Origin: Escherichia coli
GTDB taxonomy: Bacteria > Pseudomonadota > Gammaproteobacteria > Enterobacterales > Enterobacteriaceae
Strand: one strand, 5' to 3'
NCBI RefSeq assembly: GCF_003334385.1
Contig: NZ_QOWN01000181.1
DNA length: 440 bases
The position numbers were made by a program, and so were the translations under genes. The notes beneath the pieces are model-generated. The model saw only the letters and a program-made list of their open reading frames with translations, did not search any database and was not told the DNA's origin. Of this stretch, positions 1 through 440 are shown piece after piece. Numbering within the stretch: position 1 is the stretch's first letter; each line of letters starts with the position of its first letter.

Positions 1-440
1 GCCGTGGTGTGGACGCCCGTCAGCCTTCCCGTGTCGCTGTAACGGTACTCCCGGCTCTCCTGCGGGCCGCTGATGCGGATTAGCTGTCCGTTGTCGTTCC
101 AGTCGTAGTCACGGTCAAGCTGCGGAAGGTTCAGGTGCCTGCTCCGGAGCTGGCCGCTGGTATTCCAGGCGGTGGCAAGTTCATATGCCTCCCCGCCGAA
201 GCTGCGGGCCGTCTCACGGTGCAGCCTGTCCCGCGTGTACTCGACCAGCGGTGTTCCGCCCAGCTTCATCCCCGCAAGATAACCGCTGCCATACGTCAGC
301 CACTCCACCGGCGGCAGACCGTCCGGCTCCTGACGGGTCGCCAGCCCCTGTTCGCTGTACGCATGCCCCGTCTCATGCTCCCACAGCATCTCCCCCGTCT
401 CCGGGTTCTCCACCGTCTGCCGTTCGCCCGTCAGGCGGCC
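1..440 (-). CDS. rhs: Rhs family protein, internal fragment of the conserved YD-repeat core (partial at both ends; N-terminus toward higher coordinates, C-terminus toward lower coordinates)
   Basis: Seen in sequence: the minus-strand frame starting at base 440 is open for 146 codons (bases 3-440 in frame, bases 1-2 a partial codon), and all five other frames contain stops. Third-position GC is about 83% (121 of 146 codons end in G or C). The translation contains YD-repeat motifs (EYRYSDTGRLTGV, DRDYDWNDNGQLIRIS, GRLTGE) and the block VEWLTYGSGYLAGMKLGGTPLVEYTRDRLHRET, which I recognise from memory as part of the E. coli Rhs core. The family call is established knowledge plus recall, not a database search. 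Which paralogue (rhsA, B, C, D or another) cannot be decided from this fragment. Confidence 0.92.

Follow-up and report, generated by a model that had tools for sequence, protein, structure and literature searches.

The GC richness of Rhs cores and the drop of GC at the core/tip junction are already published and have been textbook knowledge since the 1990s. In the description of Jackson et al. 2009 (PMC2935791), a GC-rich core is followed by an AT-rich core extension, and the tips evolve in a manner decoupled from the core. The end of the core was defined there as DPXG-(18)-DPXG, the GC contents of core and tip were plotted (for Serratia, 67.7% versus 46.4%, with reference to Wang et al. 1998), and the GC peak was used to delimit dissociated tips. 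Among the oldest of the clade I loci in that work is position 1, which is common to E. coli and E. albertii and corresponds to the dnaQ–fadE interval, at about 240.5 kb on the K-12 map (PMC2935791). Solved structures come from Tse5 (8cp6), P. protegens RhsA (7q97), Salmonella and Photorhabdus Rhs proteins (8qja and 7pq5) and, more remotely, the TcB/TcC component of the Tc toxin (4igl).

The window, by which we mean the whole 440-nt stretch of DNA analysed here, was found over 440 of 440 nt without a difference in many complete E. coli chromosomes, under genes annotated as "RHS element core protein". It was matched in 3,708 of 5,426 genomes, in every case within a gene annotated as Rhs, and 550 records were at least 99% identical. 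The context of the locus was read from strains possessing a 100% identical window (NCTC86 and three others). In E. coli NCTC86 the window corresponded to residues 761–906 of the 1,411-aa protein WP_066008979.1. The full NCTC86 gene matched the NCBIfam equivalog NF041261 (RHS_core) over aa 4–1257, with 2487.6 bits for a cut-off of 2000, and TIGR01643 (YD_repeat) was matched in six stretches of the full protein (E 5e-48). DUF6531 and further RHS_repeat matches occupied the N-terminus, and the Rhs-associated core domain TIGR03696 was located at aa 1180–1257, outside the window. The 3' end of the core was marked by the DPxGL-(18)-DPxGL pair, the first motif reading DPIGL (aa 1231) and the second DPLGL (aa 1253). 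An earlier note, made from the letters of the window, had assigned it to an Rhs core, and both the Pfam RHS_repeat match inside the window and the RHS_core score of the full gene agree with this assignment. The coordinates of the features are collected in Table 1.

Among the PDB relatives, Tse5 (1e-112) and RhsA aligned across the region of the window; the solved relatives further comprised teneurins, the TcC plug and additional Rhs effectors of T6SS. For Tse5, P. protegens RhsA and the Salmonella and Photorhabdus proteins, the homology concerned the shell, including the window (E 1e-112 to 6e-39). For the Tc toxin it was limited to E 3.7e-6 and to the C-terminal plug of YenC2. The solved Rhs effectors and the Tc toxin differ from the E. 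coli gene in that they come from other species and possess other N-terminal loading domains and other toxin tips. The window codes for a part of the YD-repeat shell, which, by homology with them, would form the wall of a beta-cocoon enclosing the C-terminal toxin. Encapsulation of the toxin, autoproteolysis by the aspartyl protease at DPxGL, and T6SS delivery with a cognate immunity protein may similarly be expected from the solved Rhs effectors and from the presence of hcp–vgrG immediately upstream.

Table 1. Coordinates of the features of the window and of the rhs loci with which it was compared.
Feature	Sequence	Position	Strand	Basis or remark
Internal coding segment, Rhs element core protein	window	3..440	-	stop-free frame, identity to annotated genes, RHS_core match, PDB relatives aligned
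Single recognisable RHS/YD repeat unit (…DYDWNDNGQLIRISGPQESREYRYSDTGRLTGV…)	window	6..101	-	Pfam PF05593 RHS_repeat, E = 1.5e-5, window-translation residues 114–145
Compositional anomaly, 66.6% GC / 82.9% GC3	window	1..440	.	host genes ~50% GC, ~54% GC3
Segment variable among same-core alleles	window	~30–170 (alignment codons 851–900)		70–100% identity, 4–6 codon indels
Mosaic patches of the Rhs core	L001 Rhs core	alignment codons 151–200, 501–550, also 601–650, 1101–1200		alleles 95–100% identical over most of the core fall to 56–67%
Region of the two DPxGL motifs	NCTC86 locus (L001)	~10950–11027 (codons 1231–1257)		17 residues between the motifs
C-terminal tip	NCTC86 locus (L001)	10491–10949	-	1,052–1,510 nt left of window position 1
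Immunity-type ORF, 130 aa	L001	10118–10510	-	1,491–1,883 nt left of window; overlaps tip
Decayed rhs gene	L011	2489–6483		frameshifted
Decayed rhs gene	L012	2488–4716		5'-truncated
Decayed rhs gene	L013	2488–6576		5'-truncated

On recount, the composition given in the earlier note proved exact, with 293 G+C among the 440 nt and G or C at the third position of 121 of the 146 codons. A single one of the six frames was free of stops, on the minus strand from position 440 to position 3 of the window, and its 146 codons had GC1, GC2 and GC3 values of 66.4, 50.0 and 82.9%. Frame 0 of the plus strand shares the third positions and the GC3 count of this frame, but it contains four stops and is non-coding. 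The other ORFs of the window, on the plus strand and in other frames (24–36 aa), were discarded as the usual by-product of GC-rich DNA. The GC skew of the plus strand passed from approximately 0 in the left half of the window to −0.33 in the right half, so that on the coding (minus) strand G is in marked excess over the 5' part of the segment. A scan of the window against Rfam (E <= 1) gave no match, and the window was devoid of Chi sites and of promoter-like or terminator-like sites. Its repeats were limited to a single weak direct repeat of 23 nt and a short palindrome, nothing meaningful.

The composition of the host was sampled in four 50-kb stretches of the NCTC86 chromosome, in which the window is present without a difference. 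In this sample, not one of the 198,244 overlapping 440-nt windows reached 66.6% GC (mean 48.5%, sd 6.6, maximum 64.3%). Similarly, a GC3 of 82.9% or more was reached in none of the 30,163 windows of 146 codons taken from the ORFs of at least 250 aa in the same sample (mean 54.6%, maximum 77.4%). The 20 kb around the NCTC86 rhs gene, the gene itself being excluded, had a GC content of 50.4%, and a T6SS preprint gives 50.83% for an E. coli chromosome; a T6SS review offers no more than general remarks on GC. The window is a real compositional outlier for its host, as the earlier note had predicted for a host genome of around 50% GC. Within the core, whose overall values in the NCTC86 gene are lower (62.8% GC and 74.3% GC3), the window falls in the GC-richest half.

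In NCTC86, the gene order was hcp, vgrG, rhs, the 130-aa ORF, ISAs1, yafV, ivy and fadE. The rhs gene is a clade I Rhs gene at the aspV/T6SS–yafV locus, the position 1 of Jackson, on the minus strand and 3' of hcp–vgrG. The equivalent K-12 location was at 239–240 kb, approximately 5.2 min, where a 332-nt remnant (the end of yafV and a fragment of an H-repeat) was found and the core was absent. Assignment of the window to one of the K-12 rhs genes was rejected, the nucleotide identity of the window being merely 78.5% with rhsE, 78.3% with rhsD and 73–75% with rhsA/B/C. Over the whole core, the identities were 76.1% with rhsD, 71.0% with rhsA and 70.9% with rhsC (about 71% for rhsA/B/C). The RhsG/H cores reportedly differ by 22–29% from the RhsA-B-C-F and RhsD-E subfamilies, and the core described here, with a divergence of 24% from rhsD and 29% from rhsA/B/C, falls within this range. 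The RhsG element, which reportedly maps at min 5.3 and is largely deleted from K-12, also fits the locus of the window. The element is probably RhsG, as described by Wang, Zhao & Hill 1998 (J Bacteriol 180:4102). The flanks are the same as at position 1 of Jackson et al., with T6SS/vgrG on one side and yafV-ivy-fadE on the other, as is the association of a GC-rich core with an AT-rich tip. No substantive difference was seen, the comparison being based on locus, divergence and composition.

Compared with RhsA–E of K-12, the architecture was the same: an N-terminal region precedes a YD-repeat core of about 1,250 aa, which is closed by DPxGL-(18)-DPxGL and continued by a tip of 130–170 aa. So was the composition, the K-12 genes having a core GC of 61–63% and GC3 of 0.72–0.78, and a tip GC of 37–41% and GC3 of 0.18–0.31. 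Apart from the low identity, two differences were noted. The gene containing the window is linked to vgrG and to a T6SS cluster, whereas the K-12 rhs copies are orphan, and the tip of the NCTC86 gene is YkuD-like, unlike the K-12 tips. Some alleles of the same core type bear the K-12 rhsE tip with YdcD.

The GC drop expected by the earlier note to the left of the window was searched for along the NCTC86 copy, and a discontinuity was present at the core/tip boundary; its being on the left follows from the minus-strand orientation of the gene. In windows of 50 codons, GC3 was 0.54–0.88 through the core and fell to 0.10–0.20 at codons 1251–1350. When the gene was split at the second DPxGL, the core values given above contrasted with 43.5% GC and 22.1% GC3 in the 462-nt tip. 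The 130-aa ORF downstream of the tip was poorer still in GC (32.8%, with a GC3 of 24%), and the AT-rich tip and immunity gene described in the earlier note are thus both found here. A single change-point fitted by maximum likelihood was placed after codon 1237 (GC3 of 0.750 before and 0.231 after, LLR 88). This point comes shortly after the first DPxGL (aa 1231), and the formal end of the core (aa 1257) follows 20 codons later. Counted leftward from position 1 of the window, the change-point was at approximately 990 nt, the end of the core (second DPxGL) at 1,051 nt and the stop codon at 1,513 nt. As a compositional marker of the junction, the window thus supplies the high-GC side, the junction itself lying 990–1,051 nt outside.

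The other three strains in which the window is 100% identical had the same tip at the same distance (99.87% identity over 2,323 nt). The step was also observed in K-12 rhsA–E, where the change-point fell at either the first or the second DPxGL. Another eight complete genes of the core type, with windows 84–98% identical, showed it as well (in one of these eight, TW10690, the tip is incomplete at the 3' end). In the nine complete genes of the core type, NCTC86 included, core GC3 was 0.74–0.77 and tip GC3 0.22–0.31. These nine genes contained three unrelated tips, and the downstream ORF varied with the tip: the YkuD-like tip was accompanied by the 130-aa hypothetical protein, the "ALDLNYY…" tip by a Sel1-repeat protein, and the "DAIENM…" tip of K-12 rhsE by YdcD. 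Between the two DPxGL motifs lie 17 residues whose sequence followed the tip type rather than the core subfamily (in NCTC86, L002–L006 and L027–L034); K-12 rhsE and four alleles of the position 1 type shared the same inter-motif segment in addition to the DAIENM… tip. Since these residues track the tip, the swapped cassette starts inside the hyperconserved region of the core, which fits the published displacement of tips by homologous recombination.

We propose, with considerable confidence, that the window is a 438-nt internal piece of a GC-rich Rhs core, that its synonymous G/C excess is a decaying legacy, and that the tips have a separate history. In this model, the core would have evolved in a GC-rich background, leaving a synonymous G/C excess that would now be slowly decaying towards the composition of E. 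coli. The AT-rich cassettes made of a tip and an immunity gene would have a history of their own and would be swapped onto the core by recombination within the hyperconserved DPxGL-(18)-DPxGL region, and such swapping would produce the GC step approximately 1 kb to the left of the window. Already in use for this purpose, the step dependably locates the Rhs core/tip boundary and downstream orphan tips, and in this gene it places the putative toxin module about 1 kb left of the window. It is also a classic example of how polymorphic-toxin genes are assembled from parts that differ in history. Our additions to the published picture are small: the division of the GC excess into an amino-acid and a synonymous part, an excess of GC→AT changes consistent with slow amelioration, and the location of the break just after the first DPxGL, with an inter-motif segment that moves with the tip. 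The importance beyond annotation is little.

Wang, Zhao & Hill 1998 reportedly concluded that the cores evolved in a more GC-rich background than that of E. coli. Between subfamilies, the synonymous third-position differences comprised 63–90 G<->C against 5–9 A<->T, a surplus consistent with divergence in a GC-rich setting. Within the clade of the position 1 type, synonymous changes were polarised using rhsA/C/D or E. albertii as outgroups. By parsimony on 8–9 mosaic recombining alleles, with polymorphism and fixed changes mixed, 85–97 GC→AT (S→W) changes were counted against 20–28 AT→GC (W→S), a 3–5-fold excess. The window alone contained 11 GC→AT and 2 AT→GC changes. Bacterial polymorphism is always enriched in GC→AT changes. 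The equilibrium GC3 implied by the polarised changes was 0.54–0.62, close to that of host genes, which points to a core GC slowly decaying towards the host composition and not actively maintained.

The opposite view, in which the high GC3 would be actively maintained in enterobacteria of ~50% GC by GC-biased gene conversion among the multi-copy, recombining cores or by selection on DNA or mRNA, and would not be a donor relic, appears improbable. It draws on the relatives detected in one scan of species-representative genomes. The close ones within Enterobacteriaceae were E. albertii, Citrobacter, Pseudocitrobacter, Atlantibacter and an Enterobacter MAG. The segments homologous to the window had a GC3 of 0.70–0.84 in E. 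albertii, Citrobacter, Pseudocitrobacter and the Enterobacter MAG, and the flanks, where measurable, had 52–56% GC, except for one MAG contig at 63%. A GC3 this high across relatives that share 51–85% aa identity, in hosts of 52–56% GC, is what maintenance would give. The locus is moreover older than the split between E. coli and E. albertii; position 1 being old and common to E. albertii, the high GC3 must be long-lasting. The visibly mosaic cores imply frequent recombination. Maintenance is nevertheless at odds with the direction of the synonymous changes and with their near-host equilibrium, and lower GC tends to go with the divergent patches of the mosaic NCTC86 core. If it were true, the GC step would reflect a boundary between conversion-prone and non-converting DNA and not two origins.

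Returning to the legacy reading, we infer a foreign GC-rich origin of the core. The same scan of species-representative genomes revealed no GC-rich donor lineage, the relatives being enterobacterial with the addition of three MAG contigs. Rhs core segments 71–100% identical at the aa level were present in contigs of 2.6–3.6 kb from Collinsella, Akkermansia muciniphila and Lentisphaerae MAGs (L015, L019 and L022); these are probably mis-binned enterobacterial DNA, from E. coli, and not cases of transfer.

The core was strongly mosaic, and the discrete patches in which the identity of the alleles collapses are listed in Table 1. Some of the patches of NCTC86 had the lowest GC3 of its core (0.54–0.58). 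Apart from the variable segment listed in the table, the remainder of the window was 92–99% conserved among alleles of the core type.

A second alternative holds that the high GC is a by-product of the amino acids of the YD repeats (Gly, Arg, Pro, Ala and Asp) and is uninformative on origin. The GC1 and GC2 of the window (66.4 and 50.0%) indeed exceeded those of host genes (57.3 and 39.9%). The peptide of the window was recoded using codon frequencies from 43,793 codons of host ORFs. The recoded sequence had GC1, GC2 and GC3 values of 64.4, 50.0 and 55.6% and an overall GC of 56.7%, compared to 50.5% in host genes; the value observed was 66.4%. About 6 points of the 16-point excess (about 40%) are thus due to amino-acid composition, i.e., to a repeat protein rich in Gly, Arg, Pro and Ala and not to the choice of codons; the other ~10 points (about 60%) are due to synonymous choice. 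The largest deviation was synonymous, with a GC3 of 82.9% for an expected 55.6%: host codon usage predicted 81.2 ± 5.7 codons ending in G or C and 121 were observed (z = 7.0). Asp was encoded by GAC in 7 of 7 cases, Ser by AGC in 8 of 8, Pro by CCG in 7 of 7, Gln by CAG in 7 of 7 and Glu by GAG in 12 of 15. The amino-acid explanation is refuted as a complete one, a role in which we regard it as very improbable, slightly more so than active maintenance, and survives as a partial contribution. Finally, an origin of the window in a GC-rich organism or in a non-Rhs gene, which would leave no compositional anomaly, is hardly conceivable, given the full-length identity in E. coli chromosomes, the constant location under Rhs genes, and nearest non-E. 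coli relatives that are other enterics.

In the tip of the NCTC86 locus, the catalytic domain of the Pfam family YkuD (L,D-transpeptidase) was matched with E 2.8e-5 and the motif …HGGGS…GCTR…. This match suggests that the tip may be a Tlde1-type toxin directed against peptidoglycan and fused to Rhs. A sequence search of the PDB gave no relative of the tip, NCBIfam gave no match for the tip or for the immunity-type ORF, and in the Tlde1 literature checked there was no statement on Rhs-fused L,D-transpeptidase tips. The downstream ORF showed at most a weak match to DUF4367. Tip and 130-aa ORF were present together in 1,026 of the 5,426 E. coli genomes.

A decayed rhs gene was present in several of the strains whose window was 100% identical. 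In L011 the frameshifted gene was located between IS66 and ISAs1 elements. In L012 and L013, deletions fused the truncated gene to T6SS remnants (tagH or tssM), and hcp and vgrG were gone. In these strains, the immunity-type ORF was split in two.
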